Shown here piece after piece: positions 6,947 through 64,000 of a stretch of 64,000 nt of DNA (within the stretch, counting starts at the first letter, position 1; each line of letters starts with the position of its first letter). The DNA lies in assembly GCA_964640435.1 (NCBI GenBank), contig CAZXFJ010000002.1:4175-68174 (forward strand), in the 5' to 3' direction. Origin of the DNA: an uncultured Gammaproteobacteria bacterium (GTDB lineage Bacteria; Patescibacteriota; Microgenomatia; Levybacterales; GWA1-39-11). Under the pieces are notes generated by a model that was not told the DNA's origin, searched no databases, and worked only from the letters and a program-made list of their open reading frames with translations. The translations under genes were made by a program, and so were the position numbers.

Positions 6947-6965
6947 GAAGAAATAGTATCAGAAT

Positions 6966-7862: not shown

Positions 7863-7870
7863 AGAGTTTG

Positions 7871-7879
7871 ATTATACCA
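7871..7879 (-). promoter_or_regulatory. extended -10 (TGgTATAAT on minus strand) 8 nt upstream of the trhO ATG; leaderless configuration
   Basis: Plus-strand ATTATACCA at 7871-7879 reverse-complements to TGGTATAAT. An 8-nt spacer lies between it and the ATG complement at 7860-7862. Confidence 0.4.
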
Positions 7880-7921
7880 AATAGGTTCAATCTTGAATAT
7901 TGAATTAGCAAATTAGCTCGT

Positions 7922-7927
7922 TATAAT
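7922..7927 (+). promoter_or_regulatory. -10 box TATAAT 7 nt upstream of the purB ATG; leaderless configuration
   Basis: TATAAT at 7922-7927, then agcaatt, then the ATG at 7935. Confidence 0.35.
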
Positions 7928-7934
7928 AGCAATT

Positions 7935-27151: not shown

Positions 27152-27156
27152 TTTGC

Positions 27157-27390
27157 CTACTTACTTGGCATCCAGGATTTAATTTCTTTTACTGTTAGAG
27201 GTTTTGTAGCGAACTTAAATAAGTATATGATTTCAAGGATGCCAACAGTATTTAATACTAAAATTGCTATAAACCAATTACGTTGTTTAAGATGAGCAGA
27301 TCGCCATAGAGCAAAACCTTTCCACAGAAGAGACCAAATATACAAGATTAAAAAGAGATAGGGTGAATTTAATACAAAGTTACCATCCAT
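27157..27390 (-). CDS. small 2-TM membrane protein of unknown function
   Basis: 77 aa. Two hydrophobic helices flanking WKGFALWRSAHLKQRNW. Only minus-strand gene inside the glycosylation block. Confidence 0.5.
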   Translation of the reverse strand: MDGNFVLNSPYLFLILYIWSLLWKGFALWRSAHLKQRNWFIAILVLNTVGILEIIYLFKFATKPLTVKEIKSWMPSK

Positions 27391-27396
27391 AAGGAC

Positions 27397-27405
27397 AATA
27401 TATCA
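27397..27405 (-). promoter_or_regulatory. extended -10 (TGaTATATT on minus strand) 6 nt upstream of the small-protein ATG; leaderless configuration
   Basis: Plus-strand AATATATCA at 27397-27405 reverse-complements to TGATATATT. Confidence 0.35.
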
Positions 27406-27418
27406 CAATAAACCTTAA

Positions 27419-27460
27419 TTTAACAACTATTTAGGTTGTTATGCAGTACTTTAGTTGTTA
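27419..27460. promoter_or_regulatory. operator-like repeat set between divergent promoters
   Basis: TAACAACTA at 27421-27429 is the exact reverse complement of TAGTTGTTA at 27452-27460. A third near-copy, TAGGTTGTTA, lies at 27432-27441. The distal half-site overlaps the -10 box of the downstream operon. Confidence 0.4.
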
Positions 27461-44307: not shown

Positions 44308-45096
44308 ATGAAAAAACAAACTGTTTCGGTTGTTTTAGCAACCTATAATGAAGAAAAAAACTTAGCGAAATGTTTGGAGACAGTAAAAGATATCGCTGAT
44401 GAAATTGTTATAGTAGATGGAACTTCTACAGATAGAACGCGTGAAATTGCAAAAGAATTTGGAGCAAGAGTAATTAAAACCACGAATAAGCCAAATTTCC
44501 ACATAAATAAGCAGATGGGGATCGAAGCCGCAAAATGCGATTGGATCCTTCAAATGGATGCTGACGAGCATGTTTCACCAGCTCTTGCAAAGGAAATAGA
44601 AGAAAAAATTAATGATCCGAAGCTTGATTTCGACGGATACTGGATGCCTAGGAAGAACTACTTTTTAGGTCGTTTTCTTATGAAGGGTGGTCAGTATCCT
44701 GATTATACGCTAAGACTTTATAAAAATGGTAAAGGAAGGCTACCTATGAAAGATGTTCATGAGCAGGCAGTTGTTGAAGGTAAGGTTGGTTATCTTAAAG
44801 AAGCATTATTGCATTATCCCTACGAAGACTTTGCTTTTTATCTTAAAAAGTGGGATAGATATAATACATTTATAGCGGGGCAGATAAGAGACGACCTGAA
44901 ACATAAAGGAAAATTAAGAAGAGGGGTTTTTGGTGCCGAATATCTTGTTTTCAGGCCAGCACATTGGCTTCTTACAACATATGGCCGACACAAGGGCTTT
45001 ATGGATTCTTGGCAAGGGTTTACTTTTTCACTTTTTTCAGCTCTTCGATTTCCGGTTTCTTATATCAAATATTTGAAAGGTGAAGACAAGAAATGA
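44308..45096 (+). CDS. GT2 glycosyltransferase (WaaE-like subgroup)
   Basis: VSVVLATYNEEKNL...ADEIVIVDGTSTDRT and MDADE motif. 262 aa. Confidence 0.8.
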   Translation: MKKQTVSVVLATYNEEKNLAKCLETVKDIADEIVIVDGTSTDRTREIAKEFGARVIKTTNKPNFHINKQMGIEAAKCDWILQMDADEHVSPALAKEIEEKINDPKLDFDGYWMPRKNYFLGRFLMKGGQYPDYTLRLYKNGKGRLPMKDVHEQAVVEGKVGYLKEALLHYPYEDFAFYLKKWDRYNTFIAGQIRDDLKHKGKLRRGVFGAEYLVFRPAHWLLTTYGRHKGFMDSWQGFTFSLFSALRFPVSYIKYLKGEDKK

Positions 45097-46064
45097 CAGT
45101 TTTAGTTACAGGTGGAGCAGGATACATTGGAAGCTTCATGACTCGCGCACTCCTTGATCGAGGATACGATGTTATTGTATTTGATAATCTAAAAAGAGGA
45201 CACCAAGACTATATTGATAGCCGTGCAAAATTTGTAAAAGGGGATCTAGCAATTATTGAGGATTTAAATAAATTATTCGAAGAAAATAAGATTGATGCTG
45301 TTTTGCATTTTGCTGGTCTTATTGCAGTCGGGGAGTCAGAAAAAGAGCCTGAGCTATACTATAAAAATAATGTGGATGGATCTAAAAACTTGTTCAAGAC
45401 TGCAAATAAAAATGGAGTTAGGAAATACATTTTCTCTTCAACAGCAGCGGTATACGGAAACCCTCAGCAAATTCCAATCCCTGAAGACCATGCGAAAAAC
45501 CCTACAAGTGAATATGGAAAGAATAAGCTAGATATAGAGCATTTGCTTGAGAATTTAGCTAAGGAAAATGATGCAATTAGTTTTGCAGCTTTAAGATATT
45601 TTAATGCTTCAGGTGCAGCGCTCGATGGGTCATTCGGAGAAAATCATGATCCTGAAACACATATTATTCCACTAGCGATGAAGGCCGTTATAAATGACTC
45701 AGAATTTGGTCTTTTTGGAGCTGATTATGATACTCCTGATGGAACATGCATTCGTGATTATATTCATGTACTGGATTTAGTCGAGGCACATATCTTGGCA
45801 CTTAACAAAATTGAAAATGAAAATGGTGGATTTGTATACAATGTAGGTACTGGAAATGGGTATTCTAATCGCGAGGTTATAGCAGAAATTGAAAAGATAA
45901 GTGGTAAAAAAATAAATGTTGTAGAAAAACCTCGTCGCGAGGGGGATGCGGATAGACTTGTTGCAGACGCAAGTAAAATAATGAATGATTTAGGTTTTTC
46001 TCCCAAATATTCCGATCTAACCTCAATAGTAAAAAGCGCTTGGGCCTGGCATAGTAAGCAATAA
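45093..46064 (+). CDS. galE: UDP-glucose 4-epimerase
   Basis: VLVTGGAGYIGSF Rossmann motif, conserved S...YGKNK (YxxxK) block and FGADYDTPDGTCIRDYIHV, as in GalE. ATGA overlap with the upstream GT2. Confidence 0.85.
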   Translation: MTVLVTGGAGYIGSFMTRALLDRGYDVIVFDNLKRGHQDYIDSRAKFVKGDLAIIEDLNKLFEENKIDAVLHFAGLIAVGESEKEPELYYKNNVDGSKNLFKTANKNGVRKYIFSSTAAVYGNPQQIPIPEDHAKNPTSEYGKNKLDIEHLLENLAKENDAISFAALRYFNASGAALDGSFGENHDPETHIIPLAMKAVINDSEFGLFGADYDTPDGTCIRDYIHVLDLVEAHILALNKIENENGGFVYNVGTGNGYSNREVIAEIEKISGKKINVVEKPRREGDADRLVADASKIMNDLGFSPKYSDLTSIVKSAWAWHSKQ

Positions 46065-52170: not shown

Positions 52171-53429
52171 TGAAAAAGGCTTTATCTTTACTCAAAAACA
52201 ATAATTTCCTATCTGCTTCTTTTTGGGTTTTTCTAGGAACTGGTTTTCTAAATTTTGGAAGTTATCTTTACCACTTGATGATGGGAAGATTATTGGGTCC
52301 CTCTTCATATGGTGCTCTAGAGGGTGCAATTTCTGTGTTATATATCCTATTCGTTCCGACCGCAACTTTATCTTTGATAGTTGTGAAATTTGTCTCATCA
52401 TATCTTGGTAAAAAAGATTATAAAAAAATCAATGAAATCTATAATTATCTTTTTAGTAAAGTATTAATTTTTGGAGCAGCTATAACAATAATTTTACTTT
52501 TAATTTCTCCTTTGCTAACTAAGTTTTTGAGATTTCCAAATATTTATATTTCGATATTTATAGCAATCACATTTTTAGTCAATCTGTTCTATATCCTGGA
52601 CAAAAGTGTGGTTCAAGGTTTAACAAAGTTTTTTAAATTCTCATTTCTAAATGTTATTGAAACATCTGTAAAGTTGTTTCTAGGTATTACTCTTGTATAT
52701 TTAGGTTTTTCAGTTGATGGAGCATTTGCAGGAGTTGGAATTGGTTTGCTGGCAGCACTCTTTGTCTCACAAGTATTTGTAAAGCAATCAGTTAAGGTAA
52801 AGCTAAATTTGAAAGCAGATTTTTCTGAAAAAAAAGAATTATGGAAGTTTGCGATCCCAACATTTATTACAACGCTTGCATTAACATCTATTTTTACAAC
52901 AGATATTATTCTGGTTAGACATTTCTTCCATGGCGCAGAGTCAGGATACTATTCCGCGATTTCCGTACTCGGAAAAGTAATATATTTTGCAGCATCTCCA
53001 GTTATTTTTGTCGTCTTTCCTTTGGCATCAGAATTTCATGCAAAAGGTGGAAAATTTGAGAAATTTTTGTACCAAGGAGTGGCACTAGCTGGTTTTGTAT
53101 GTATTTTAATAACATCAATATACTTTTTAGTGCCAAACTTAATGGTTTCACTACTTTTCGGTCCATCTTATCTTCCTATAGTTTCATATCTTGGGATTTT
53201 TGGCGTTTTTATTTCTCTGTATACGATTTGTGCTTTGATCGCCAATTTCTATCTTTCAATTCATAAAACAACATCATCATATTTAGTTCTTTTTGCAGCA
53301 ATATTACAAATAGTATTAATTATTTTATTCCATAACTCATTAACTGAAGTTATTTATGTTTCGATACTTTCTTGTATTGTGCTTCTAATTTCCCTTTTGC
53401 TATACTATCCGCATGCAAAAAGAAGATAA
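52170..53429 (+). CDS. Wzx-like oligosaccharide flippase (MOP superfamily)
   Basis: 419 aa with ~12 TM. LGPSSYGALEGAISVLYI polysaccharide-biosynthesis-protein N-terminus. Confidence 0.7.
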   Translation: MKKALSLLKNNNFLSASFWVFLGTGFLNFGSYLYHLMMGRLLGPSSYGALEGAISVLYILFVPTATLSLIVVKFVSSYLGKKDYKKINEIYNYLFSKVLIFGAAITIILLLISPLLTKFLRFPNIYISIFIAITFLVNLFYILDKSVVQGLTKFFKFSFLNVIETSVKLFLGITLVYLGFSVDGAFAGVGIGLLAALFVSQVFVKQSVKVKLNLKADFSEKKELWKFAIPTFITTLALTSIFTTDIILVRHFFHGAESGYYSAISVLGKVIYFAASPVIFVVFPLASEFHAKGGKFEKFLYQGVALAGFVCILITSIYFLVPNLMVSLLFGPSYLPIVSYLGIFGVFISLYTICALIANFYLSIHKTTSSYLVLFAAILQIVLIILFHNSLTEVIYVSILSCIVLLISLLLYYPHAKRR

Positions 53430-54192
53430 AATCAAACTAATTTCTCTGGTTGTTCCGGCATATAAACAACAAAAAACAATATTAAAAAATGTTGAAGTTT
53501 TAATGGATGAGCTGTCAAAATTGCCTTATAAATCTGAGTTACTGATTGTTATAGATGGAAATCTCGATAATACGTCACAAAAACTTGAAAAATTAAAGAA
53601 AAAAAACATATTTGTATATCAGTATGAAAGGAATGAAGGAAAAGGATATGCAGTTCGCTATGGAGTATTAAGAGCAAAAGGGGATTTAATAGGGTTTATT
53701 GATGCGGGTATGGATCTTGATCCTTCGGAAATATCCTTGATGATTGATACCATGCTATGGAAGGATGCAGATGTCGTTGTAGGAAGCAAGCTACATCCAG
53801 ATTCGAAAGTAAATTATCCATATGTGAGAAAAATTTTGTCTTGGGGTTATAGAACATTCACGCATTTACTTTTTGGCTTTTCAGTTAGAGATACACAAGT
53901 TGGTTTAAAATTTTTTAGGAGGCAAGTTGCTAAAGATGTATTCCCAAGATTACTAGTTAAACGATTTGCATTTGATGTAGAAGTTTTAGCTCTTGCTTAT
54001 GCACTTGGCTATAAGAAAATTTATGAGTCTCCCGTAAAGTTAAGGTTTAGAAATAACAGTACCATTACTTCAAAGAGTTTCTGGAAAGAAATTTCAAATA
54101 TGCTTTGGGATACGGCGGCAGTTTTTTATAGAGTTAGAATTCTAAAATACTATAGAAGAAGTAATAAAGAAAATTGGCTTAATATAGAATGA
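53413..54192 (+). CDS. GT2 polyprenyl-phosphate sugar synthase (DPM1/GtrB/ArnC-like)
   Basis: NEGKGYAVRYG, GFIDAGMDLDP, DTQVGLKFF and AFDVEVLALA. 259 aa. Confidence 0.8.
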   Translation: MQKEDKIKLISLVVPAYKQQKTILKNVEVLMDELSKLPYKSELLIVIDGNLDNTSQKLEKLKKKNIFVYQYERNEGKGYAVRYGVLRAKGDLIGFIDAGMDLDPSEISLMIDTMLWKDADVVVGSKLHPDSKVNYPYVRKILSWGYRTFTHLLFGFSVRDTQVGLKFFRRQVAKDVFPRLLVKRFAFDVEVLALAYALGYKKIYESPVKLRFRNNSTITSKSFWKEISNMLWDTAAVFYRVRILKYYRRSNKENWLNIE

Positions 54193-55289
54193 ACATATTA
54201 ATTTTAAATTGGCGGGATATAAAACACCCGCTTGCTGGTGGTGCCGAAATCTCACTTTTTGAACATGCTAAAAAATGGAAGGAGAGTGGTGCAAATGTTA
54301 TCTGGTTTTCATCTGCCTTTTCATACTACAAAAAGGAGGAGGAGATTGACGGAATCAAGTTTATTAGATCAGGCAGCCAAATAACTGTGCATATAACTGC
54401 TTTTTTTGTCTTTTTGTTTGGAAAACTTGGTAGGCCTGATATTGTTATAGACTCGTTTCATTTTCTTCCATTCTTTTCGCCATTATATATTTTTAAAGCA
54501 AAGAAAATAGCACTTATAAATGAGGTGGCCGGTAAACTTTGGTTTTCAAATATAATTTTTCCTATTTCACTGATTGGATTTTTTCTTGAAAAAATTTCAT
54601 TTATTTTTTATAAAAAAAGTACATTTATTACAGCATCAAAATCAACTGAAAATGACCTTTTAAAAATAGGAATCGATAAGAAGCGGGTTCACACCATTTT
54701 GAATGGAGTAACATTGGTTAAATTAAAGAAGAGAGTAGAAAAAGAAAAAAATCCTACCATTATTTTCCTGGGGAGAATCTCTGATGACAAAGGGATAAAA
54801 GATGCATTTAAAGCATTCGAACAAGTTTATATATCAAATAATAAAGTTGAATTTTTTATAGCAGGCAAAGAAGAAAAAAAGGGTATTATAGATAATTTAA
54901 TAAATTCATTAGATAAATCATGTCGTAGGAACGTTAAATATTTTGGGTTTGTTAGTGAAGAAAAAAAATTTGAACTGTTGCGAAAGGCTTGGATACTTAT
55001 TCATCCTTCAATGAAAGAAGGGTGGGGGTTAAATGTTATAGAGGCTGCATCTCAACAGACTCCGACGGTTGGTTACGATGTAGAGGGTTTAAGAGATTCT
55101 ATCATTGATTCCAAAACTGGTATACTTTCACAACCAAATTCGTTATCACTTGCAGAAGATATTATGAAAATACTAAATGATGACAAATTAAGATACAAAT
55201 TAAGTAAAAATGCACAAGAATGGTCAAAAAATTTTAATTGGGAAAAAAGTGCTACCAAGAGTTGGAAAGTGATAACTTCAGATGAATAG
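54189..55289 (+). CDS. GT4 (GT-B) glycosyltransferase
   Basis: PLAGGAEISLFE N-terminus and EGWGLNVIEAASQQTPTVGYDVEGLRD GT4 signature. Confidence 0.8.
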   Translation: MNILILNWRDIKHPLAGGAEISLFEHAKKWKESGANVIWFSSAFSYYKKEEEIDGIKFIRSGSQITVHITAFFVFLFGKLGRPDIVIDSFHFLPFFSPLYIFKAKKIALINEVAGKLWFSNIIFPISLIGFFLEKISFIFYKKSTFITASKSTENDLLKIGIDKKRVHTILNGVTLVKLKKRVEKEKNPTIIFLGRISDDKGIKDAFKAFEQVYISNNKVEFFIAGKEEKKGIIDNLINSLDKSCRRNVKYFGFVSEEKKFELLRKAWILIHPSMKEGWGLNVIEAASQQTPTVGYDVEGLRDSIIDSKTGILSQPNSLSLAEDIMKILNDDKLRYKLSKNAQEWSKNFNWEKSATKSWKVITSDE

Positions 55290-56133
55290 TATAAAGAATA
55301 AAAAGCATATACTGTCCGTCGATTTTGAGTCCTGGATTTTCTCAAAAAAAATAAATAGTCAGAACTTGTCAATTTCAGATCTTAAAAAGCTTGATGCTGG
55401 TTATTCTCCTAAAGCGTTGAAAACAATGCTAAAAGCTCTCAAAAAAAATAATCAAAAAATTACTTTCTTTGTTGTAAGCAAGCTTGAACAAATATACCCA
55501 GGAATTATTGAAACAATACTTGAGGATGGACATGAAGTGGGATGGCACTCCCATACTCACGTTGTAATGCATGAGCTTGACACTTTAAAAAAAGAACTGG
55601 ATATGGGAAGTGAGATAATTACTAAATACAAGATGAAAGGATTCCAGGCGCCAAATATCGTTTTCATGAAAAAAGGCTATAAATATTTAAAGGACTACGG
55701 TTTCACATATTCTTCATCGATATATGGCAATAGTAATAAGATTTATAAATTCAATGATGTTTTTGAAATACCTGTTACCTCACATAAGAAAGATCAGTCT
55801 CATGCGGAAATCGAATTTCCGACTACGCTTTTAAGAAGCTTACTAAAAAGAGAAGTTCCTTTGGGTTCAAGTTTCTTTTGGGGTTTACTAGGAGGCAAGT
55901 TTTATCATAAGAAGTTATCTTCCTTAAGAAATAAAGGGGAGATAATAAATATGTTTATTCATGACTGGCAAATCTTAACACCAAAATCTGAAATTTATAA
56001 AAAGGATGTTGGATTTTTTTGGAACCCCCTCTTTCTTCCCTACAAAATAAACGTTAGAAAGATGTTTGAAGAACTTGTGTCAAAACATGAATTCACAAGA
56101 TTTGATAAATTTATAAAAGATTTTAATAAGTGA
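55282..56133 (+). CDS. polysaccharide deacetylase-like (CE4) protein
   Basis: DGHEVGWHSHTH (H-S-x-x-H metal motif). 283 aa with a divergent NodB-type arrangement. Confidence 0.55.
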   Translation: MNSIKNKKHILSVDFESWIFSKKINSQNLSISDLKKLDAGYSPKALKTMLKALKKNNQKITFFVVSKLEQIYPGIIETILEDGHEVGWHSHTHVVMHELDTLKKELDMGSEIITKYKMKGFQAPNIVFMKKGYKYLKDYGFTYSSSIYGNSNKIYKFNDVFEIPVTSHKKDQSHAEIEFPTTLLRSLLKREVPLGSSFFWGLLGGKFYHKKLSSLRNKGEIINMFIHDWQILTPKSEIYKKDVGFFWNPLFLPYKINVRKMFEELVSKHEFTRFDKFIKDFNK

Positions 56134-56945
56134 AAAGAAAATTAAGAATTTATTGTATTCTCGCTGACGAAAATTTATTCCATCCTCATTATTTTAATGG
56201 AATAATAAAGGGGCTTAGTAAAAAAGGTTATAAGGTTGTTGGTTTAACACTTGCGCTGGATAAATATAAAAGGGGTTTTGCAAATGCTGTATTTGAACAA
56301 ATATACTTATGGGGCTTATTACCATTTGCATTTATTGCTACAAACTCATTAGTCAGAACCGGTCTCTTTCGGTTAGGTTTATTAAGGCATAAGACTGTTC
56401 GTGGAGTCGCTTTACTACATAATATACCTGTTTACGAAACTTTTAATGTAAATGATAAGACGCACCTCTCTTATCTATCCAAAAAAAATATAGATATCAT
56501 TATTTCTTCAAATGGACAAATTTTTAAGAAAGATTTACTTAAGCTTCCTAAAGTTGCTGCAATAAATAGGCACTCTGCATTGTTACCCTCTTATGGAGGG
56601 GTATTGCCAATCTTTTGGGCTATGAAAAAAAAGGAGAAAAAGCTTGGAACTAGTGTACATTATATGGTTGAAAAGATAGATAAAGGTGATATTCTAGCAC
56701 AATATTCGTTTGAGAACGAAAAGGGGAGTTCACTATTCGAGAACTATATGTACGCATTCAATTTAAGTATTCCTGCGACTATCGATGCAATTGAAAATAT
56801 TTTAAACAAGAAAACGATAAAAAAGTTTAGACACAATAAGAATGAATATTTTTCTTTTCCAGAGAGAAAAATGATAAAAATGTTTAAGAAAACCAACAAG
56901 CCTTTTAGACTGAAAGATGTTATGAAATTTTATACAATATATTAA
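56130..56945 (+). CDS. sugar N-formyltransferase (Fmt/ArnA-FT-like formyl_trans_N domain)
   Basis: NRHSALLPSYGG...HYMVEKIDKGDILAQ matches the N-x-H...SLLP-x-Y-R-G...H...D-x-G catalytic core. GTG start overlapping the upstream stop. Confidence 0.7.
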   Translation: MKRKLRIYCILADENLFHPHYFNGIIKGLSKKGYKVVGLTLALDKYKRGFANAVFEQIYLWGLLPFAFIATNSLVRTGLFRLGLLRHKTVRGVALLHNIPVYETFNVNDKTHLSYLSKKNIDIIISSNGQIFKKDLLKLPKVAAINRHSALLPSYGGVLPIFWAMKKKEKKLGTSVHYMVEKIDKGDILAQYSFENEKGSSLFENYMYAFNLSIPATIDAIENILNKKTIKKFRHNKNEYFSFPERKMIKMFKKTNKPFRLKDVMKFYTIY

Positions 56946-58273
56946 TGCTTAAACTTATCCGTACTAATGTATACCTGTTGTTACTTCTTGCTATACTTGC
57001 TCTAGGCTTGATGCTTAGGACAAATAACTTGTATACCTGGCCAAGACTTGGGGCAACATTTGATGAATACGCTTGGACTTGGCAAGGAATGAATATTATA
57101 CAAAAAGGAGTTCCTATCTCTTGGTCACCACATCCTCAATATAAAAATGCAAAAGATATAATTTATCAACGAACTCATTTCAGAATTGTTACACCATTTT
57201 TAGAACACCCGCCAATATTTGGTTTAGTTGCAGGATCGTTTGCAATTATTAATGGAGCGGACGACATGTATCATTTAACTATCGAAAATATTCGGCCTCT
57301 TGCGGTTATTCTTGGCCTCTTATCAATATTAATGGTGTTTCTCTTAACGTCTGAAGTATATGACAAAAAAACTGGTCTAATCGCCTCACTTATTTACACG
57401 ATTATTCCAACGATTGCTGTAGGTTCGCGAATTGTTCAGAATGAAAACTTTTTTATTCCTTTTTGGCTTCTCTCTCTTTGGCTAATTGTTAAATATATAA
57501 AAAATAAAAGGTCTCTCTATATGTATTTTGCTGCAATAATCTGCGCATTACTTGTTCTTGCAAAGATACCCTGGATTGCCGCTGCTGGATCTATATTTTT
57601 AATCTTTATGTACTTGAAGCAATACAAAAACGCATTTATCTTTTTCATGATTCCTATTATCTCGCTCGTCATGTTTGTCATATACGGCTTCTATTTTGAT
57701 AAAGACGTTTTTATTAATCTATGGGCACTTCAATTAAATCGATACGATATAGCTTTTAATAGCATTTTTGCTCTTTTTACTGAGCCTTTTTTGGCAGATA
57801 GATATACAGTTGATGGGTGGATCTATTTTGGATGGTTTGCCTTCATTTTATTACTCGTATCTGATTTTAAGAAAAATTATCCCGTTATTTTGGGGCTACT
57901 CGCGTACTTTTCAATCTTTATCTTCGCCATCCCCAATGAAGCTGGACATGGTTGGTATAGATATCCGTTTTATCCCTTCCTTGCTATTTCGCTAGCAATT
58001 TTTCTGAAAGAGTATTACAAGAAAAACATTCTACTTACGTTCTTTTTTATTGTTTTTGTTGTAACTTCGCTTTTACAACTTTCATATGGTGTAAGCGTGG
58101 GCTTCTCATTTAAAATTTTTAGAGTTTTTCTACTATCTACAACTCTTATACTTCTCCCTCTGTTCTTTACGAATAAAAATTTAGTTAAACTCTCGCATTT
58201 ATATTGTAATGCAATGCTTGGTGTAATTTTACTGTTAAGTATTTGGTCAATTCTAAACTATAATGAGCAATAA
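56945..58273 (+). CDS. GT-C membrane glycosyltransferase, GT39/GT83 (ArnT/PMT-like)
   Basis: 442 aa, polytopic. First-loop TFDEYAWTWQG acidic DE motif. Confidence 0.6.
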   Translation: MLKLIRTNVYLLLLLAILALGLMLRTNNLYTWPRLGATFDEYAWTWQGMNIIQKGVPISWSPHPQYKNAKDIIYQRTHFRIVTPFLEHPPIFGLVAGSFAIINGADDMYHLTIENIRPLAVILGLLSILMVFLLTSEVYDKKTGLIASLIYTIIPTIAVGSRIVQNENFFIPFWLLSLWLIVKYIKNKRSLYMYFAAIICALLVLAKIPWIAAAGSIFLIFMYLKQYKNAFIFFMIPIISLVMFVIYGFYFDKDVFINLWALQLNRYDIAFNSIFALFTEPFLADRYTVDGWIYFGWFAFILLLVSDFKKNYPVILGLLAYFSIFIFAIPNEAGHGWYRYPFYPFLAISLAIFLKEYYKKNILLTFFFIVFVVTSLLQLSYGVSVGFSFKIFRVFLLSTTLILLPLFFTNKNLVKLSHLYCNAMLGVILLLSIWSILNYNEQ

Positions 58274-59114
58274 TATGAAAATATTAATTACAGGTGGGGA
58301 TGGTCAATTGGCAAAATCTATAGCTGGATTTTATCCAGATGAAAATCTTGTTCTTGTAAGTAAAAAAGATCTTGATGTTACTGATAGGGATGGTGTTTTT
58401 CAAAAAATATCTGAACAAAAACCTGATATAGTATTTCATTTTGCATCACTTACTCGAGGGGATGAATGCACTAAAAATCCTGAGCTGGCGCATAAAATAA
58501 ATGTTGTGGGCACGGAAAATGTTGTAAAGGCAGTAAAGAGGTTAGGTATTGAACTGGTTTTTGTAAGTACTAACGAAGTTTTTGACGGGGAGAAAAAAGA
58601 TCCTTATACTGAAGATGATTCACCAAATCCAATAACCGTTGTTGGTGAAACGAAATATGATGCTGAAAAGAAAATTAGGGAAAATTTGGAAAAGTACTAC
58701 ATTATTAGAACTTCCTGGCTATTTAGTAAATGGAGTAACAATTTTCTCCAGGCCATATTTAAAAAAGCAAAAGATAAGAAAAGGGTGGAGCTTGTCGTAG
58801 ATGAAGTAAGTTCACCTACATATTCAATAGATCTTGCAAAAGCTATTAAAGAGCTTGTTGATACAGGTAAATATGGGATATATAACCTGGCAAATTCGGG
58901 ACAAGCATCACGCCTTGAGTTTGCAAAAAAAGCATTTGAGTTAAAAGGACTATCTGATGTTGAAATTAATCCTTTACCTTTAGCCTCTTTTAATAGGTTA
59001 TCAAAGCCACCTCTTTTTACTCCGTTGTCTATTAAGAAGGCAAACGGCTTAGGTATTAATATCAGAGACTGGGAAAGTGCATTAGCTGAATTTCTTTCAG
59101 AGAACAATATATGA
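58263..59114 (+). CDS. dTDP-4-dehydrorhamnose reductase-like (RmlD-type) nucleotide-sugar reductase
   Basis: ILITGGDGQLAK Rossmann motif. Catalytic block TKYDAEKK (Y-x3-K) and STNEVFDG. The alternative start at 58275 gives MKILITGG. Confidence 0.7.
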   Translation: MSNNMKILITGGDGQLAKSIAGFYPDENLVLVSKKDLDVTDRDGVFQKISEQKPDIVFHFASLTRGDECTKNPELAHKINVVGTENVVKAVKRLGIELVFVSTNEVFDGEKKDPYTEDDSPNPITVVGETKYDAEKKIRENLEKYYIIRTSWLFSKWSNNFLQAIFKKAKDKKRVELVVDEVSSPTYSIDLAKAIKELVDTGKYGIYNLANSGQASRLEFAKKAFELKGLSDVEINPLPLASFNRLSKPPLFTPLSIKKANGLGINIRDWESALAEFLSENNI

Positions 59115-59956
59115 AAAAAAATAAATTAATTTCTATTGTTATTCCTACTCGAAATTCTGCAATAGTTTTGGAGAATTGTCTCAAAAGCATAAAAGAGCAA
59201 AATTATAAACCCGTAGAAGTGATTATTGCTGATGGTAGATCCACTGATAATGTTCGTGAACTTGCTGAAAAATATAATTGTCGATATTTTAAGTACAAAA
59301 CACACTTACGTGAAGTCTATTTTGATGCGCCTCACAAAATTAATTTTGGTGCGTCCAAAGCCAGGGGAGATTATATATATTGGTTAGATGCTGATATGGA
59401 ATTAACCCCCAATCTTCTCGCAGAAGCGGTAAGGCTTTGTGAAGAGGGGGCTGGTGCTGTAATTTTACCTGAAGATTCATTCGGAGAAGGGATTTGGGCA
59501 AAAGCGAAACAACTTGAAAGAAGATGTTATTGGGGTGATGATTCTGTAGAATCTCCAAGATTTTTCAAAAAAAGTGTCTGGGAGGAGATTGGTGGATTTG
59601 ATTTATCCCTTGGTGCTGGAGGAAATGACTGGGATCTACATATACAAGTTCTTGAACATGGATACAAAGTTGCTCGAACAAAAAATATTGTACGACATAA
59701 TGAAGGAAATTTAAATCTAATAAAACTTTTTAAAAAAAGATTTATGTATGGTAGAGAAGCAGTTAAGTATATTGGTAAAAGACCCAAAGCGAGTTTTGCC
59801 AACTTCTTTCCGATAAGGTATTCCTATATTAAAAACTGGAGAAGTTTCGCCAAGCAGCCAATAACTACTGGCGCTTTTGTAGTAATGCGTACGGTTGAGT
59901 ATACTGGAGGATTTTTGGGAATTGTTACTAATTCAATGGAGAAGAAGAAAAAATAA
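59111..59956 (+). CDS. GT2 glycosyltransferase
   Basis: ISIVIPTRNSA...IIADGRSTDN and LDADMELTP. 281 aa. Confidence 0.75.
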   Translation: MKKNKLISIVIPTRNSAIVLENCLKSIKEQNYKPVEVIIADGRSTDNVRELAEKYNCRYFKYKTHLREVYFDAPHKINFGASKARGDYIYWLDADMELTPNLLAEAVRLCEEGAGAVILPEDSFGEGIWAKAKQLERRCYWGDDSVESPRFFKKSVWEEIGGFDLSLGAGGNDWDLHIQVLEHGYKVARTKNIVRHNEGNLNLIKLFKKRFMYGREAVKYIGKRPKASFANFFPIRYSYIKNWRSFAKQPITTGAFVVMRTVEYTGGFLGIVTNSMEKKKK

Positions 59957-60034
59957 AAAGCTCAATGTTGCTTTTTAATAAATTTTGAATATAATTTTAT
60001 ACGTAATAGTGGTATTTTATCTTATTATACCGCT

Positions 60035-60040
60035 ATAATA
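60035..60040 (+). promoter_or_regulatory. -10-like TATAAT in the AT-rich 99-nt gap upstream of the GME-like gene
   Basis: TATAAT at 60035-60040, 15 nt before the ATG at 60056. This is the only sizeable intergenic gap in the right half of the locus. Confidence 0.3.
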
Positions 60041-60055
60041 GTTAGTTATTCTTAT

Positions 60056-61057
60056 ATGATAAAGAAAACAAAAAAAACTATAAAATCGAGAGGTAAAACA
60101 GCGCTAGTTTTAGGTGCCGGAGGTTTTATAGGTAACCACTTAGTAAAAAGGCTTAAATCCGAAGGGTACTTTGTTAGAGGAGCTGATATCAGAAAACCAG
60201 AATACGGAAAAAGTCTTGCCGATGAATTTATGATTGTTGATCTTCGAAGGCAAAAAAGCTTTGAGAAGGTTATGGATAAGCCATTTGATGAGGTATATCA
60301 GCTTGCAGCAGATATGGGTGGGGCTGGTTATATTTTCACTGGTGAACATGATGCAGATGTAATGCATAATTCTGCATTAATTAATCTAAATGCTCTTCAG
60401 TATGGACAAAAAGCAGGAATAAGGAAAATATTTTTCTCCTCATCTGCATGTATATATCCTGAACACAATCAAGTTGATCCTGATAATCCAAACTGCGAAG
60501 AATCTTCAGCTTACCCAGCAAATCCGGATAGTGAATATGGTTGGGAGAAGTTGTTTAGCGAGAGAATGTTTCTTGCATATCATAGAAATTATGGCATGAA
60601 TATTAGAATAGCAAGATTCCATAATATTTTTGGTCCAGAGGGAGCTTGGAATAATGGTAAAGAAAAGTCACCAGCAGCAATATGCAGGAAAATTGCGCAA
60701 GCACCTGATGGTGGAACAATTGAGATGTGGGGTGACGGCGAACAAACACGCACATACCTATATATAGATGAGTGCCTGGAAGGTGTAAGACGATTAATGG
60801 ACTCAGACTTTACAGGACCAGTTAACTTAGGTTCAGATGAAATGGTAAGTCTTAACGAGCTTGCTGAAATGGTAATGAAGATTGCAGGCAAAAAAGTTAA
60901 AATTAAACACATTAAGGGGCCCTTAGGTGTGAGAGGTAGAACTTCTGATAATAAGCTAATTAAAAAGAAATTAGGTTGGAAACCTAAGCAACCACTTGTT
61001 GACGGTATGACAAAGACATATGAGTGGATAAATGAACAAGTTAGGAAAGCAAAATAA
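60056..61057 (+). CDS. GDP-mannose 3,5-epimerase-like NAD-dependent nucleotide-sugar epimerase
   Basis: LAADMGGAGYI, FSSSACIYPE, RFHNIFGP, SPAAICRK, MWGDGEQTR, YIDECLEGV and GSDEMVSLNE reproduce the block order of plant GME. Confidence 0.8.
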   Translation: MIKKTKKTIKSRGKTALVLGAGGFIGNHLVKRLKSEGYFVRGADIRKPEYGKSLADEFMIVDLRRQKSFEKVMDKPFDEVYQLAADMGGAGYIFTGEHDADVMHNSALINLNALQYGQKAGIRKIFFSSSACIYPEHNQVDPDNPNCEESSAYPANPDSEYGWEKLFSERMFLAYHRNYGMNIRIARFHNIFGPEGAWNNGKEKSPAAICRKIAQAPDGGTIEMWGDGEQTRTYLYIDECLEGVRRLMDSDFTGPVNLGSDEMVSLNELAEMVMKIAGKKVKIKHIKGPLGVRGRTSDNKLIKKKLGWKPKQPLVDGMTKTYEWINEQVRKAK

Positions 61058-61059
61058 AT

Positions 61060-61872
61060 ATGATTAAAAATTTGGTAATTGGTTCTGATGGATTTATTGG
61101 TAAACCTTTTTGTGAGTATCTATCACAAAAAGGGGAAGAAGTTATTCGTTTTGACATTAAGCGAAACAGTAAGGAAGATGGTAGAAGCTATAAATTTGAT
61201 CTTAAAAAAATAGACAGGGTATATTTTTTAGCTTGGGATGTTGGGGGTTCAAAATACTTATACGATAAAAAACTTCAAATGGGGCAACTTAAGTGGAACC
61301 TCGACTTAATGCGTAATGTGTTTGACGCAATAGAGAAAGAGAAAAAAGATTTCCTTTTTGTTTCTAGTCAATTGGCTGAGGAATGTGACACAGTATACGG
61401 CGTAACTAAAAGACTTGGCGAAGTATGGACTAGTGAACTTGGAGGAGTTTGTGTTAGGGTTTGGAATGCGTATGGTTATATGGAGCCAAACGATGTTAAA
61501 AGTCATGTGATATCCGATTTTGTTCATCAAGCTCTCACCACAAAAAAAATAAAAATGATGACAAAAGGAGAGGAGTCAAGACAGTTTACTCATATAAATG
61601 ATCTCTCAAAATCATTTCATATGGCACTTTCTTTGAAAAATCGTACTCGAACAGTATTTGACGCAAGTAGCTACGAGTGGGCTAGGATTATAGATATTGC
61701 AAATATAATAGCAGAATTAACAGGTGCAAAAGTAATTCAAGGAAAGAGTAATGGGCATGATCCATTACCTTCAAAAAACATGGGTAGAGTTCCCGGATGG
61801 CTTCCCGGTATCACCCTGCGCGATGGAATAAGCGCGATGATTGATCAGGCCAAAAGTATAAATAATGGCTAG
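61060..61872 (+). CDS. short SDR-family NAD(P)-dependent epimerase/reductase
   Basis: IGSDGFIG glycine-rich loop and YGVTK (Y-x3-K). 270 aa. Confidence 0.55.
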   Translation: MIKNLVIGSDGFIGKPFCEYLSQKGEEVIRFDIKRNSKEDGRSYKFDLKKIDRVYFLAWDVGGSKYLYDKKLQMGQLKWNLDLMRNVFDAIEKEKKDFLFVSSQLAEECDTVYGVTKRLGEVWTSELGGVCVRVWNAYGYMEPNDVKSHVISDFVHQALTTKKIKMMTKGEESRQFTHINDLSKSFHMALSLKNRTRTVFDASSYEWARIIDIANIIAELTGAKVIQGKSNGHDPLPSKNMGRVPGWLPGITLRDGISAMIDQAKSINNG

Positions 61873-63103
61873 CAAAGTTAATAACCCTCTTTCAAAGAAT
61901 TCAACTATCCTCTTCTTAACATTTTCAAGATGGGTTGATGGAAAGCGTCTTCCTACAACAGGTAGTCTTGATCCCTTAAGAGATTATTTGGTTCCTAAAA
62001 TTAAAAAACTAGTGATTATTGACCAGGTTCATCCAGGGAGTGATAGGGTAATGCCAATAATTGAGGAGTATAAAGATCAAAGTGGAAAGGTTAAGCTTCA
62101 CAAGTCTTCATGGGTAGTATATTTATTAAAACCATTCTTGCCTTTAAATGGAACTCAGAAGACCCAAATTTCATATAAGTTAAGAGATTTTCTTTCAGTA
62201 ATAGATTGGTCTTTCCGAGATAAAACCAAATTCGATTACTATATCTGCCTTGAAAGTATTAATGCCATAGCAGCTATTTTGATGAGAAAAATGGGAAGAG
62301 TAAAAAAAGTAGTTTATTATGTTTCTGATTACTCCCCTAAAAGATATCCAAGTAAATGGTTTAATTACGTATATCTAATGCTCGATCGATTTGCAGCAAT
62401 GCATTCTGATTACATATGGGATGTATCACCAGCAATGCAGAAAGCACGTATTAGCATAGGACTTGATCCTAAAAAATCTGCTCCAGTGATCGATGTTCCT
62501 AATGGTTTATATCCTGCACAGATTGAAGCAAATCCTATTTCTAAAATTGATAAACACTCTTTTATATATATGGGTACAGTCGGAGCTGAGAATGGACCTG
62601 ATATTGCTATAAAAGCTTTGGCAATTGTTAGAAAAAAATTTAAAGATGCAAAACTTCATATAATTGGAGGTACAGAAAAAGATTTTGAGTGGCTTGCAAA
62701 ACTTGTAAAAAAATTAAAACTTGAAAAAGCAGTAATTTCACATGGTTTTGTTGAAGATGGACTTGAAATGTCTAGAATCATAAGATCTTGTGCGATAGGA
62801 GTTGCTCCGTATCGTGATATTCCTGGTTCAATAAGGCACTATGCAGATGCTGGTAAAATTAGAGCATATTGTGCATCAGGTTTGCCAGTCGTAAGTTCCC
62901 ATGTTCCTCCGCTTGGCTTAGAAGTTGCAAAAAAGGGAGCAGCAATCGTTGTTAAAGATACTCCGGAGGAATTTGCAGATGCAATAATGGATATTTTTTC
63001 AAATAATTCTTTGTATTTAAAATTAAGGAAAAATGCTATTCTTTTTGGTAAAAATAACACATGGAATAATACATTTAAAAATGCATTCTCAAAAATGAAA
63101 TGA
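61865..63103 (+). CDS. GT-B glycosyltransferase (GT4-like)
   Basis: 412 aa. C-terminal Rossmann domain with IYMGTVGAENG...HIIGGTE and VAPY...ASGLPVV. TGA stop. Confidence 0.6.
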   Translation: MASKVNNPLSKNSTILFLTFSRWVDGKRLPTTGSLDPLRDYLVPKIKKLVIIDQVHPGSDRVMPIIEEYKDQSGKVKLHKSSWVVYLLKPFLPLNGTQKTQISYKLRDFLSVIDWSFRDKTKFDYYICLESINAIAAILMRKMGRVKKVVYYVSDYSPKRYPSKWFNYVYLMLDRFAAMHSDYIWDVSPAMQKARISIGLDPKKSAPVIDVPNGLYPAQIEANPISKIDKHSFIYMGTVGAENGPDIAIKALAIVRKKFKDAKLHIIGGTEKDFEWLAKLVKKLKLEKAVISHGFVEDGLEMSRIIRSCAIGVAPYRDIPGSIRHYADAGKIRAYCASGLPVVSSHVPPLGLEVAKKGAAIVVKDTPEEFADAIMDIFSNNSLYLKLRKNAILFGKNNTWNNTFKNAFSKMK

Positions 63104-63999
63104 AGAAATCTATCAAGAAGCAACAAGGCGGACACGATTTTAACTATGAAGAAGTTATTATGGGTGTGTTTCAGGGGAGAAAAAAAGGTTTTGCAAAGGA
63201 GATTTACCAGAAAAAACCTGAACTTCGAAGAGTTGTGGATATGGTCAAAATTAAAAAAGGAAGATTACTTGATATTGGTTGTGGAGGAGGGTATGTTACA
63301 GAGTGTCTTCCAAAATATTACCCAAAAGTAAAAATATATGGTTGTGATGTAAGTGCCACAGCAATAAAATATGCGAAGAAGTTTGGAACAGGCAAAGTAT
63401 CATACAAAGTTATGCAAAAAAAGCTTCCATACCCCTCCAATTATTTTGACGCAATAACTTGTCTTGATGTTCTGGAGCATATTCCAGACGTTGATTTTTT
63501 TATTCGTGAGGTAAGAAGAGTATTGAAAAAAGATGGTGTATTTTTCGGTGCAATTCCATGTGAAGGACAACCATTTACATTTAGTTGGTTTTTTAGAAAA
63601 GTAGGTTTTTGGGGTGATCTAACATATAAACATGTTGGGCACATTCATCCCGAGTTTACTCATAAGTACGTCATGGATCTTTTCACAAAAAAAGGTTTTG
63701 AAGTTGTTGATAAAAGATATGCAGAGAGACTTCCCGTACAATTTCTCCGATATTTCCAATTCATGATTCCTAAAGAAATTTTCGAACTTTTCGTAGGTGA
63801 GAAAAAGGCTTCTGCATATTACGACAGAAGCATTGCTGTGAGTAAAGTTGTAAAAAAAGATCCTTTTATGTTTTTGAGAAATTCATGTTATAAAATTCGC
63901 GACTACACAAAAATAATTGATGATATTGATGCCGAGAAATTTAAAAATTCCTCTTTTGGGGCTTGGAAAATAAACTTACTCGTATCTGTTAAAAAATAA
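63100..63999 (+). CDS. class I SAM-dependent methyltransferase
   Basis: LDIGCGGGYVT motif I, YGCDVS and LDVLEHIPD. 299 aa. Confidence 0.8.
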   Translation: MKKSIKKQQGGHDFNYEEVIMGVFQGRKKGFAKEIYQKKPELRRVVDMVKIKKGRLLDIGCGGGYVTECLPKYYPKVKIYGCDVSATAIKYAKKFGTGKVSYKVMQKKLPYPSNYFDAITCLDVLEHIPDVDFFIREVRRVLKKDGVFFGAIPCEGQPFTFSWFFRKVGFWGDLTYKHVGHIHPEFTHKYVMDLFTKKGFEVVDKRYAERLPVQFLRYFQFMIPKEIFELFVGEKKASAYYDRSIAVSKVVKKDPFMFLRNSCYKIRDYTKIIDDIDAEKFKNSSFGAWKINLLVSVKK

Positions 64000-64000
64000 G

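Follow-up and report, generated by a model that had tools for sequence, protein, structure and literature searches.

The window, a stretch of 64,000 nucleotides (33% GC) from a CPR-type bacterium, carries an ORF that had been likened to the GDP-mannose 3,5-epimerase (GME) of plants. Does this ORF encode a genuine GME, and what would it make together with the genes that follow it? The original prediction placed a short SDR, a GT-B transferase, and a SAM methyltransferase behind the GME gene. This order and these families were confirmed, and all four ORFs were found at the following positions.

60056..61057, + strand: GDP-mannose 3,5-epimerase (GME/GM35E) ortholog as judged from its sequence, 333 aa
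61060..61872, + strand: short extended SDR, 270 aa (Pfam Epimerase, 66.9 bits)
61865..63103, + strand: soluble GT-B glycosyltransferase of GT4-type (retaining) fold, 412 aa
63100..63999, + strand: class I SAM-dependent methyltransferase, 299 aa (Methyltransf_11, 78.4 bits)

A phmmer search of the 60056 ORF against the PDB gave 340.7 bits (E = 8e-101) for Arabidopsis thaliana GME (AtGME; 2c59), and alignment with AtGME showed 51% identity over 312 aligned positions. All seven GME blocks quoted in the original prediction were present, i.e., ADMGGAGYI (aa 85-93), FSSSACIYPE (aa 127-136), RFHNIFGP (aa 187-194), SPAAICRK (aa 205-212), MWGDGEQTR (aa 224-232), YIDECLEGV (aa 236-244), and GSDEMVSLNELAEMV (aa 259-273), and the NAD motif GAGGFIG was located at aa 20-26. 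Three mutant chains of AtGME (Y174F, K178R, and K217A) served to locate the catalytic columns. In the alignment, S143, C145, Y174, K178, K217, and R306 of AtGME were all retained, including the C145/K217 acid/base pair for which a check had been proposed; the predicted catalytic residues of the window GME are S130, C132, Y161, K165, K204, and R295, respectively. The same blocks and residues are thus common to the window GME and the Arabidopsis enzyme (2c59, 2c54, 2c5a, and 2c5e), although the latter has about 45 more residues at its termini. A set of 88 bacterial homologs plus AtGME shared 89 invariant positions, and proteins 77-79% identical to the window GME bear the IMG/JGI label "GDP-D-mannose 3',5'-epimerase". 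The original prediction named a closer fit to UDP-glucuronate decarboxylase, GDP-fucose synthase (GFS), or a further SDR subfamily as what would refute it. Such an assignment might be considered from the generic Pfam matches of the ORF (Epimerase and GDP_Man_Dehyd) and from its highest-scoring NCBIfam model, GDP-L-fucose synthase. However, that model scored 112 bits where 500 is the cutoff, the next-best subfamily in the PDB, UDP-xylose synthase (UXS), reached only 108 bits and GFS 87 bits, and the ORF has the GME-specific C145 and K217. We regard this assignment as already refuted. By its sequence, the 60056 ORF is a full-length GME ortholog and would be, by family, an NAD-dependent epimerase.

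The enzyme had been called rare in bacteria, which proved incorrect. At least 8,000 clusters at 90% identity passed E <= 1e-80, a lower bound as all 8,000 scored clusters passed, and exact peptide seeds alone recovered GME in 309 species-level genomes of Patescibacteria, Bacteroidota, Planctomycetota, Acidobacteriota, Proteobacteria, and other phyla. One bacterial GME, that of Methylacidiphilum fumariolicum (MfGM35E; UniProt I0K0X9), has been characterized. It is a self-sufficient GME with a kcat/KM of about 2 s-1 mM-1 with GDP-mannose, and its identity to AtGME (50.5%) is close to that of the window GME (PMC6678494). The two bacterial proteins are alike in their GxxGxxG, Ser/Tyr/Lys, Cys/Lys, and Arg residues. 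MfGM35E comes from a verrucomicrobial thermoacidophile and was assayed, whereas the window protein is known from its sequence and was set beside MfGM35E by published description.

It may be asked whether this GME-family epimerase acts here on a GDP-sugar other than GDP-mannose, such as GDP-D-glycero-D-manno-heptose, GDP-glucose, or GDP-mannuronate. ManB/ManC were not found among the window ORFs of at least 120 aa and the five named genes in the next ~6 kb, on the extending locus L081. GmhA-like (SIS_2) and GmhB-like (HAD/PNK3P) genes directly upstream of GME in locus L093 hint at a heptose substrate there, and in other lineages UDP-glucose/GDP-mannose dehydrogenase is fused to GME (P0002 and P0082), so that some members may act on acidic GDP-sugars. 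Nevertheless, heptose genes adjoin GME in just one of the 13 loci, the catalytic and flanking motifs are all identical to those of AtGME, the window GME and the assayed bacterial enzyme are equally close to AtGME in identity (PMC6678494), and the GMEs of the cassette showed no distinguishing active-site substitutions compared with 76 other bacterial GMEs. A substrate other than GDP-mannose is therefore considered unlikely. Elsewhere, GME is also fused to a NodZ-like fucosyltransferase domain and adjoined by GT11 fucosyltransferase-family genes, which supports L-galactose as a donor there.

The four genes do form a module, and related genomes carry it as well. Its junctions are tight, with a 2-nt spacer between GME and the short SDR, an 8-nt overlap between the short SDR and the GT-B gene, and a 4-nt overlap (ATGA) between the GT-B and methyltransferase genes. 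The short SDR lay directly 3' of GME in all 13 independent loci, the two being separated by 2 to about 90 nt, and the linked GMEs were 67-79% identical to that of the window. An ortholog of the GT4-type enzyme (52-65% identity) was found in 12 of the 13, being adjacent downstream in 11. This strict linkage of the short SDR to GME, together with the glycosyltransferase ortholog, is new here. Among the 11 loci with enough flank, at least one SAM methyltransferase was present in every one and a hexapeptide O-acetyltransferase in 10. The module had been described as terminal, which did not hold: the array runs on past base 64000, and the term reflects only the window end, because the operon continues. 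On L081, which reaches about 7.9 kb beyond the window end (the last partial gene lying outside the scan), a WbbJ/LacA-type O-acetyltransferase, GT-C-like polytopic membrane proteins, and an SGNH/GDSL protein follow.

The short SDR has the NAD-type Rossmann motif GxxGxxG (G8, G11, and G14, with D32) and the triad S103/Y113/K117, all family-invariant. D32 stands at the end of beta-2, where an Asp in SDRs points to the binding of NAD and not NADPH. In hhalign, the protein aligned with GME at a probability of 97.9 with a 22-residue deletion at the C145 loop of GME, and its Ser-to-Tyr spacing is 10 compared with 31 in GME, ~29 in RmlD, and ~25 in GalE. As read from these alignments, the substrate loop of ~22 residues that in GME lies between Ser and Tyr and carries the catalytic cysteine is missing from the short SDR. 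Its AF2 model (pLDDT 90) had UXS, GFS, MoeE5, TunA, and Cj1427 as best Foldseek matches at 22% identity or less, no NCBIfam model reached its cutoff, and sequence, profile, and fold searches placed it in no characterized subfamily. The best 120 of its 778 relatives all had 62-78% identity to it and lengths of 264-306 aa, and the family names come from Patescibacteria only. From sequence and model, the protein appears competent but atypical, with only generic nucleotide-sugar SDR neighbours. Because linked and unlinked GMEs are alike at the active site, the short SDR would add a step rather than replace one. The bound-NAD signature and Ser/Tyr/Lys triad without the cysteine loop make redox-neutral epimerization via a 4-keto intermediate its most likely reaction.

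Two other roles were weighed for this protein. It might be independent of the GME product, e.g., a UDP-sugar 4-epimerase or decarboxylase that contributes a different sugar to a common glycan and shares no more than the location with GME. UDP-sugar enzymes are indeed what it matches best in sequence and fold (UDP-GlcA 4-epimerase 6zl6, UXS, and MoeE5), and 23 long GME-containing proteins included no fusion of GME with a short SDR. However, its PDB matches are all weak (at most 22% identity) and generic, adjacency to GME is kept in 13 of 13 loci while other cassette genes vary in order, and the identity of the best 120 SDR relatives to the window protein is close to that of the linked GMEs. Independence from GME thus seems rather unlikely. 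By analogy with GDP-fucose synthase, RmlD, and Cj1428, it might instead be an NAD(P)H-dependent 4-keto reductase yielding a deoxy or reduced L-sugar; its Foldseek matches include GFS, GDP-4-keto-6-deoxy-mannose reductase, and a Cj1427-type enzyme, and genes for RmlD-type reductases are found close to GME, at 58263-59114 in the window and also in L089 and L090. This role is very improbable, given that a 4,6-dehydratase (GMD) was not found in the window, that GME retains its NAD and releases reduced products, and that the invariant Asp32 is typical of transient oxidation and not of net reductases. Redox-neutral remodelling of the GME product remains the preferred role.

The GT-B protein matched Glycos_transf_1 (60.5 bits) and Glyco_trans_1_4 (65.4 bits), and no TM segment was found in it; it would be cytoplasmic. 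Of its 643 relatives, those with a name belong to Patescibacteria or Woesebacteria only. The best Foldseek matches of its AF2 model (pLDDT 93) were MshA, SPS, HepE, BshA, PimB', and PimA, fold neighbours that do not identify the donor sugar; it is presumed to be the transferase for the sugar of the cassette. The methyltransferase is presumed to be a sugar O-methyltransferase. Orthologs of it (41-45% identity) lie directly 3' of the GT-B gene in L088, L089, and L093, and the SAM methyltransferases that other loci have in the corresponding place or upstream of GME are non-orthologous, so that methylation of the cassette sugar itself is only presumptive.

The original prediction also gave the GME gene an AT-rich gap with its own promoter. 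The gap is real (59957-60055, 99 nt, 20% GC) and ranks second in size among the intergenic gaps of a same-strand array of 44 genes, where all but one of the others are 37 nt or less. The following features flank or occupy it.

59111..59956, + strand: GT2 glycosyltransferase directly upstream of the gap (Glycos_transf_2, 87 bits)
59954..59977, + strand: small A/U-rich hairpin ahead of a U-rich tract, overlapping the stop codon of the GT2 gene
60034..60039, + strand: perfect −10 hexamer TATAAT inside the gap, 16 nt before the GME start codon

A promoter for the cassette is plausible. In L001, L002, L089, and L090, a TA[GT][AT]AT box precedes the GME start by 10-17 nt, and a full TTGAC-N17-TAGTAT lies directly upstream of GME in L002, L089, and L090, these being three of its nine matches over all 93 loci. 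Upstream of the window TATAAT no recognizable −35 was found, and a generic promoter scan was at chance level (35 found compared with 31 expected). The TATAAT is, to judge from the sequence pattern, probably the cassette promoter, and a very short leader would result. The hairpin (8-bp stem, dG −7.3 kcal/mol, z = −2.24, with 6 of 200 shuffles folding as well) was not called by a generic terminator scan; it is possibly a weak terminator that parts the cassette from the upstream genes. GT2 orthologs (52-63% identity) were found at most a few kb upstream of GME in L001, L009, L086, and L092, and the GT2 gene accompanies the cassette repeatedly but not always.

Comparable arrangements are known. 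MfGM35E likewise has a glycosyltransferase adjacent and a methyltransferase nearby, but no short second SDR has been reported beside the gene (PMC6678494). Actinomycete GME homologs in the bleomycin (BlmG, L-gulose) and A201A (L-galactose) pathways are clustered with dedicated glycosyltransferases and tailoring enzymes (PMC6678494, PMC8787198). In this literature-based comparison, those pathways produce secondary metabolites with a carbamoyltransferase and a mutase as accessories, whereas the window locus has an SDR and an envelope or surface glycan. AtGME feeds ascorbate and cell-wall synthesis, whereas the window enzyme lies within a surface-glycan operon. GDP-heptose remodelling in Campylobacter jejuni offers a precedent for the passing of a GDP-sugar between several small SDR-type enzymes whose genes are neighbours. 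The Cj1427-type C4 dehydrogenase (PDB 6vo8) is a structural neighbour of the short SDR (TM 0.81, 19% identity); the system has no specific sequence relationship to the short SDR and serves as an analogy only. The Campylobacter epimerase is not known to belong to the GME family.

Taken as a whole, a GME-headed, separately promoted cassette that builds, modifies, transfers, and decorates an L-hexose is the reading we hold with moderate confidence. Family membership, the catalytic residues, and a conserved gene order are shown by the analysis; what the short SDR, glycosyltransferase, and methyltransferase act on, and which sugar finally results, we infer as follows. Most likely, an L-hexose is made, modified, transferred, and O-methylated or O-acetylated, and it may form a terminal glycan cap as originally proposed. 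GME would convert GDP-D-mannose to GDP-L-galactose by Cys/Lys acid-base chemistry, as in the plant enzyme, with GDP-L-gulose as the 5-epimer by-product. The short SDR would further remodel this GDP-L-hexose, and the GT4 enzyme would move the product onto a lipid-linked or other cytoplasmic acceptor, a transfer that would pull the unfavourable epimerase equilibrium forward. The cassette, with GME as its first gene, would be a separately promoted, translationally coupled unit that recurs in Patescibacteria (CPR)-type genomes, and the sugar residue, once O-methylated and O-acetylated, would be one component of the large surface-glycan system that occupies the window.

The cassette comprised four consecutive ORFs, listed below with their putative products.

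60056-61057, + strand, GDP-mannose 3,5-epimerase (GME or GM35E; EC 5.1.3.18), 333 aa
61060-61872, + strand, short SDR, 270 aa; Pfam Epimerase, 66.9 bits
61865-63103, + strand, GT-B glycosyltransferase, 412 aa; Pfam Glycos_transf_1 and Glyco_trans_1_4
63100-63999, + strand, class I SAM methyltransferase, 299 aa; Pfam Methyltransf_11, 78.4 bits versus a cutoff of 21.2

The four ORFs were present as stated in the original prediction. In Pfam, which gave generic assignments, the first two fell into the NAD-dependent epimerase/dehydratase family and the GT-B scored 60.5 bits (cutoff, 26.4) and 65.4 bits (cutoff, 27); the families proposed for the three downstream ORFs were thereby borne out. Two nucleotides separated the first ORF from the second, which overlapped the third by 8 nt; the third and the fourth overlapped by 4 nt (ATGA).

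All seven sequence blocks by which the first ORF had been recognized as a GME were found in ORF 60056-61057. In a search against all PDB chains, this ORF matched the GME of Arabidopsis thaliana (AtGME) with an E value of 8e-101 (340.7 bits) and a second plant GME, 8sg0, with 330 bits. Among the other SDR subfamilies in PDB, human UDP-xylose synthase (UXS1) gave 108 bits, a GalE-like protein 90 bits, and GDP-L-fucose synthase (GFS) 87 bits. GME is thus far ahead, and a UXS identity was ruled out by these scores. A GFS (Fcl) identity was also ruled out, the score against NCBIfam NF047922 being 112.1 bits versus a curated cutoff of 500. Because no NCBIfam model passed its cutoff for the ORF, NCBI calls such proteins merely "NAD-dependent epimerase/dehydratase family protein"; JGI/IMG labels proteins 77-79% identical to it "GDP-D-mannose 3',5'-epimerase". 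The ORF product and AtGME showed 51% identity over 312 aligned positions, which is the same level as the 50.5% reported between AtGME and MfGM35E of Methylacidiphilum fumariolicum, the sole biochemically characterised bacterial GME (PMC6678494).

The Rossmann motif GxxGxx(G/A) was present as GAGGFIG at residues 20-26 (GAGGFIA in AtGME). The catalytic columns were read from the AtGME mutant chains Y174F (2c5a), K178R (2c54), and K217A (2c5e), which correspond to Y161, K165, and K204 of the ORF product. Its Ser/Tyr/Lys triad consisted of S130, Y161, and K165 (S143, Y174, and K178 of AtGME), and its acid/base pair and arginine were C132 (within SSACIYPE), K204 (within GKEKSPAA), and R295 (within GVRGRTSDN), equivalent to C145, K217, and R306 of AtGME. 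The catalytic residues were invariant among 88 bacterial homologs and AtGME, as were 89 positions in total. These results indicate that, as far as sequence can show, ORF 60056-61057 encodes a GDP-mannose 3,5-epimerase. The family is known, widespread, and already recognized by automated annotation; this enzyme is a new member of it, and the assignment itself is not new.

The view that this enzyme is rare in bacteria was contradicted by cluster counts, by its relatives in species genomes, and by the literature. In a word-indexed search, 8,000 out of 8,000 90%-identity clusters scored against the ORF had E values of 1e-80 or lower. When 50%-identity representatives were searched exhaustively without a profile, 1,021 clusters reached E values of 1e-30 or lower, with scores above 260 bits for each of the best 150. 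A scan that covered a single genome for each species, seeded by exact peptides from the ORF alone, confirmed 309 relatives. The best 80 of these were 61-79% identical and came from Patescibacteria, Bacteroidota, Planctomycetota, Acidobacteriota, Alpha-, Gamma-, and Deltaproteobacteria, Verrucomicrobia-type bacteria, Gemmatimonadota, and others, including cultured Bradyrhizobium, Geomesophilobacter, and Lutibacter. A bacterial GME has already been characterised, and roles in LPS, bleomycin, and A201A biosynthesis have been proposed (PMC6678494, PMC8787198).

Several homologs from other organisms had unusual architectures. In P0002 and P0082, the GME domain was fused to a complete UDP-glucose/GDP-mannose dehydrogenase, which hints that GDP-uronic acids are the substrate for some family members. 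Seven homologs were split by insertions, of ~85 residues in P0133 and 330-380 residues in P0011, P0046, P0053, P0054, P0056, and P0147 (overall range, 85-380). The insertion sites varied (query residues ~130, ~160, ~194, and ~229), and one adjoined the catalytic Cys. These inserts are probably inteins, because a LAGLIDADG domain was found inside that of P0011.

The exact window proteins are on record at NCBI and in the Logan assemblies of runs SRR14271353, -354, -361, and -370, in contigs of up to 73 kb, and the closest named relatives belonged to Patescibacteria, including Gottesmanbacteria and Woesebacteria. The closest GME relatives were in records titled 'uncultured Gammaproteobacteria' (loci L001, L003, L005, L007, and L009, from binchicken co-assemblies, on contigs of 0.55-0.78 Mb). 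L001, L003, and L009 carried the cassette, which is otherwise named only from Patescibacteria; the Gammaproteobacteria labels on the five records are probably wrong.

Thirteen independent loci with a homolog of the 270-aa short SDR were collected, from the species genomes as well as by scanning metagenomes and by looking up exact proteins. The metagenome scan, seeded by a single short-SDR sequence, yielded 4 loci, and further loci were reached via the exact-protein look-ups. A GME gene was located directly upstream of the short SDR gene in all 13 loci. A GT-B ortholog (52-65% identical) was adjacent downstream in 11 of the 13, the exceptions being L086, where it was directly upstream of GME, and L003, which had no GT-B. 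A SAM methyltransferase was present in each of the 11 loci with enough flanking sequence, and at least four non-orthologous types were represented. The type found in the window (~300 aa) directly followed the GT-B in L088, L089, and L093 (41-45% identity), a ~210-aa type occupied that position in L001, L091, and L092, and the remaining types were encoded just upstream of GME. On the other hand, the short SDR was absent from 76 of 80 GME loci of diverse phyla. The genes flanking GME in such loci were for the most part glycosyltransferases; among 107 flanking ORFs, Glycos_transf_1 was represented 16 times, GT2 10 times, WecG 8 times, and GT11 3 times. GME therefore does not need the short SDR, but the short SDR seems never to occur without GME. 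In size, the short-SDR and GT-B families were similar (778 and 643 matches, respectively), both were named only from Patescibacteria, and their members often shared long contigs.

In L093, GME was directly preceded (5688-8869) by two transketolase/E1-like genes together with one SIS_2 (GmhA-like) and one HAD/PNK3P (GmhB-like) gene. This context suggests that the input there is a heptose or another unusual sugar phosphate.

An adjacent glycosyltransferase and a nearby methyltransferase have been noted for MfGM35E (PMC6678494), as in the window cassette. Our literature searches found nothing on GME or L-galactose in Patescibacteria or on a second SDR coupled to GME. Nor did we find a description of a recurrent cassette, named only from Patescibacteria, in which GME is strictly paired with a short SDR that lacks the loop and is accompanied by a GT4 transferase, a methyltransferase, an O-acetyltransferase, membrane proteins of a GT-C-like kind, and an SGNH protein.

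The short SDR family was well conserved, with a mean column identity of 65% among 38 diverse members. Its invariant residues included G8, G11, G14, D32, S103, Y113, K117, K147, H149, D153, and R174-Q175-F176, and the protein had the GxxGxxG motif, the Ser/Thr-Tyr-Lys triad, and the C-terminal NDP-sugar domain of nucleotide-sugar extended SDRs. In SDRs, an Asp residue at the end of beta-2, such as D32 here, indicates NAD and not NADP, and a Ser/Tyr/Lys triad is the mark of a functional oxidoreductase site. The usual substrate loop of ~24-31 residues between the catalytic Ser/Thr and Tyr was missing. The Ser-to-Tyr spacing was 10 in the short SDR, compared with 31 in GME, ~29 in RmlD, and ~25 in GalE (all from the window), and hhalign aligned the short SDR with GME (probability, 97.9) with a 22-residue deletion exactly at the loop of GME that holds C145.

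The short SDR had no match to a characterised subfamily, the best NCBIfam score being 31 bits versus a cutoff of 475. The AF2 model (pLDDT 90.1, pTM 0.88) superposed on UXS, GFS, and MoeE5 at TM 0.7-0.84. Foldseek retrieved UXS, GFS, MoeE5, TunA, Cj1427, and GalE-like enzymes at identities of 22% or lower, and GME ranked only 31st. Since sequence, profile, and fold searches gave solely generic nucleotide-sugar SDR neighbours among solved structures (best PDB profile match, 42 bits), a specific reaction is not assignable to the short SDR.

No GME-short-SDR fusion of the Rosetta-stone type was found among 23 long GME-containing proteins, in which the short SDR aligned weakly and solely to the GME domain itself. 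GMEs linked and unlinked to a short SDR differed in one column, K71, and their active-site columns were alike. The idea that the linked GME is crippled or specialised, and relies on the short SDR for the completion of its own reaction, was rejected on account of these unchanged active sites. Most economically, we infer that the short SDR would be an NAD-retaining, redox-neutral epimerase acting on the GDP-L-hexose formed by GME. It is possible, if rather doubtful, that the short SDR is a new nucleotide-sugar enzyme that converts the GME product (GDP-L-galactose or GDP-L-gulose) into a further, so far undescribed GDP-L-hexose, and that the cassette is thus a two-step route to a rare L-sugar, which would then be transferred, methylated, and acetylated on the cell surface. 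The candidate sugar would be a C4 or C3 epimer, for example GDP-L-glucose.

The AF2 model of the GT-B had a pLDDT of 93, and no transmembrane (TM) segment was predicted in this protein. Its closest structures in Foldseek were the retaining GT4 enzymes MshA, SPS (sucrose-phosphate synthase), HepE, BshA, PimB', and PimA, of which PimB' and PimA use GDP-mannose. The modelled fold indicates that ORF 61865-63103 encodes a GT4-type retaining GT-B, its donor not being readable from the fold matches. L-Galactose is the 6-hydroxy analogue of L-fucose. In a protein from another organism, P0004, the GME domain was fused to a NodZ-like fucosyltransferase domain, which hints at L-galactosyl transfer via fucosyltransferase-like enzymes, and GT11 fucosyltransferase-family genes flanked GME in three loci. 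This fusion and these genes lend indirect support to L-galactose as a sugar donor in bacteria. The methyltransferase at 63100-63999 had no NCBIfam equivalog at cutoff and, judged from its sequence, is an ordinary class I SAM enzyme.

The cassette had been regarded as a terminal module, but its end is merely where the window stops. L081, in which the same DNA was assembled to a greater length and which was identical over the overlap, showed further genes past the methyltransferase. The next gene encoded a 202-aa hexapeptide O-acetyltransferase (WbbJ/LacA/WcaF-like, below cutoff). It was followed by genes for a protein of 748 aa with some 10 TM segments, another membrane protein (336 aa), a GDSL/SGNH protein encoded on the other strand, and a paralog, 783 aa long, of the 748-aa protein. 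The O-acetyltransferase recurred in 10 of the 11 loci with enough downstream sequence, and the 748-aa membrane protein and the SGNH protein were found in many of the 13 loci. The two paralogs (L081 13536-15782 and 17840-20191; ~37% identity) had 10-13 predicted TM segments, a soluble region of ~280 aa, and a C-terminal TM segment, and fell into no Pfam family. Proteins of this type, which recurred in the cassettes of L001, L009, L086, and L092, may constitute a new GT-C-like or polymerase family.

The cassette had also been credited with its own AT-rich promoter gap. The gap was present (99 nt, 20% GC) and was the second-largest in the 44-gene array, after a 303-nt gap at 27152-27454. A sigma-70/terminator scan of 56000-64000 was at chance, with 35 promoter-like sites versus 31 expected and 4 terminators versus 4.2 expected, and was replaced by a comparative test across loci. 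A perfect TATAAT was found at 60034-60039, and a TA[GT][AT]AT box preceded the start of GME by 10-17 nt in the window, L001, L002, L089, and L090. The full TTGAC-N17-TAGTAT sequence had nine matches among 93 loci, three of which (L002, L089, and L090) were directly upstream of GME. A cassette-specific promoter with a very short leader is therefore likely, by comparison across loci, although the -35 sequence in the window itself is poor. Since the -10 box lay 10-17 nt from the start and no Shine-Dalgarno sequence was evident before GME in the window (60034-60058), a leaderless or near-leaderless first gene is suggested. A small hairpin (dG -7.3, z = -2.2), with a U-rich tract behind it, overlapped the stop codon of the GT2 gene that precedes the gap. 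An Rfam scan of the whole window detected tRNA only, with no riboswitch or leader in the 99-nt gap and no match at the gathering threshold in the 303-nt gap. The tRNA-Glu(CTC) at 511-584 on the - strand overlapped the 3' end of a 156-aa ORF without a family match (88-558, + strand), which is probably spurious.

The window had a GC content of 33%, and 44 consecutive genes on the + strand with almost no intergenic space extended from 7935 to its end. This region (7935-63999) is a ~56-kb glycosylation super-cluster composed for the most part of glycan-assembly genes. It contained many GT2 and GT4 transferases and two flippase-like proteins, and the polytopic membrane proteins of the window included about seven of the PMT_2 type, three of the YfhO type, and four of the PTPS_related type. 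A bona fide GalE and an RmlD (NCBIfam scores of 403 bits versus a cutoff of 262 and 232 bits versus a cutoff of 224, respectively) were encoded on the following segments.

45093-46064, GalE
58263-59114, RmlD

Despite the presence of RmlD, no RmlA, RmlB, or RmlC was found in the window; RmlD-like reductases were also encoded just upstream of GME in L089 and L090. ManB, ManC, and GMD were detected neither among the window ORFs of at least 120 aa nor among the five named genes in the ~6 kb that follow the window, and ManC (NTP_transferase) was also missing from the list of the 25 families found most often next to GME in other phyla.

A group of genes at 53413-58273 encoded a GT2 weakly similar to ArnC and polyprenyl-phosphate-sugar synthases, an ArnD-like polysaccharide deacetylase, a formyltransferase resembling the ArnA N-domain (68.6 bits), and a PMT_2/ArnT-like membrane transferase. 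This group resembles an Arn-type formyl-aminosugar lipid-carrier pathway; no aminotransferase was seen for it. A deacetylase and formyltransferase pair was also present downstream of GME in a planctomycete locus, L006.

There is no surprise here at the level of mechanism or system type. Reviews have called for more bacterial and archaeal GME homologs and for glycosyltransferases that accept GME products (PMC8787198). The cassette offers a GME, a co-evolving GT4 transferase, and tailoring enzymes as candidate biocatalysts, and the short SDR, strictly linked to GME, represents a well-defined and easily testable orphan enzyme family. If the short SDR does make a new GDP-L-hexose, the cassette would deserve more attention. 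To our knowledge, the envelopes of Patescibacteria are almost uncharacterised. The cassette points to methylated and acetylated surface glycans containing L-hexose in Patescibacteria. In carbohydrate enzymology, and in the study of the surface chemistry of such ultra-small bacteria, it is a sound and testable lead.
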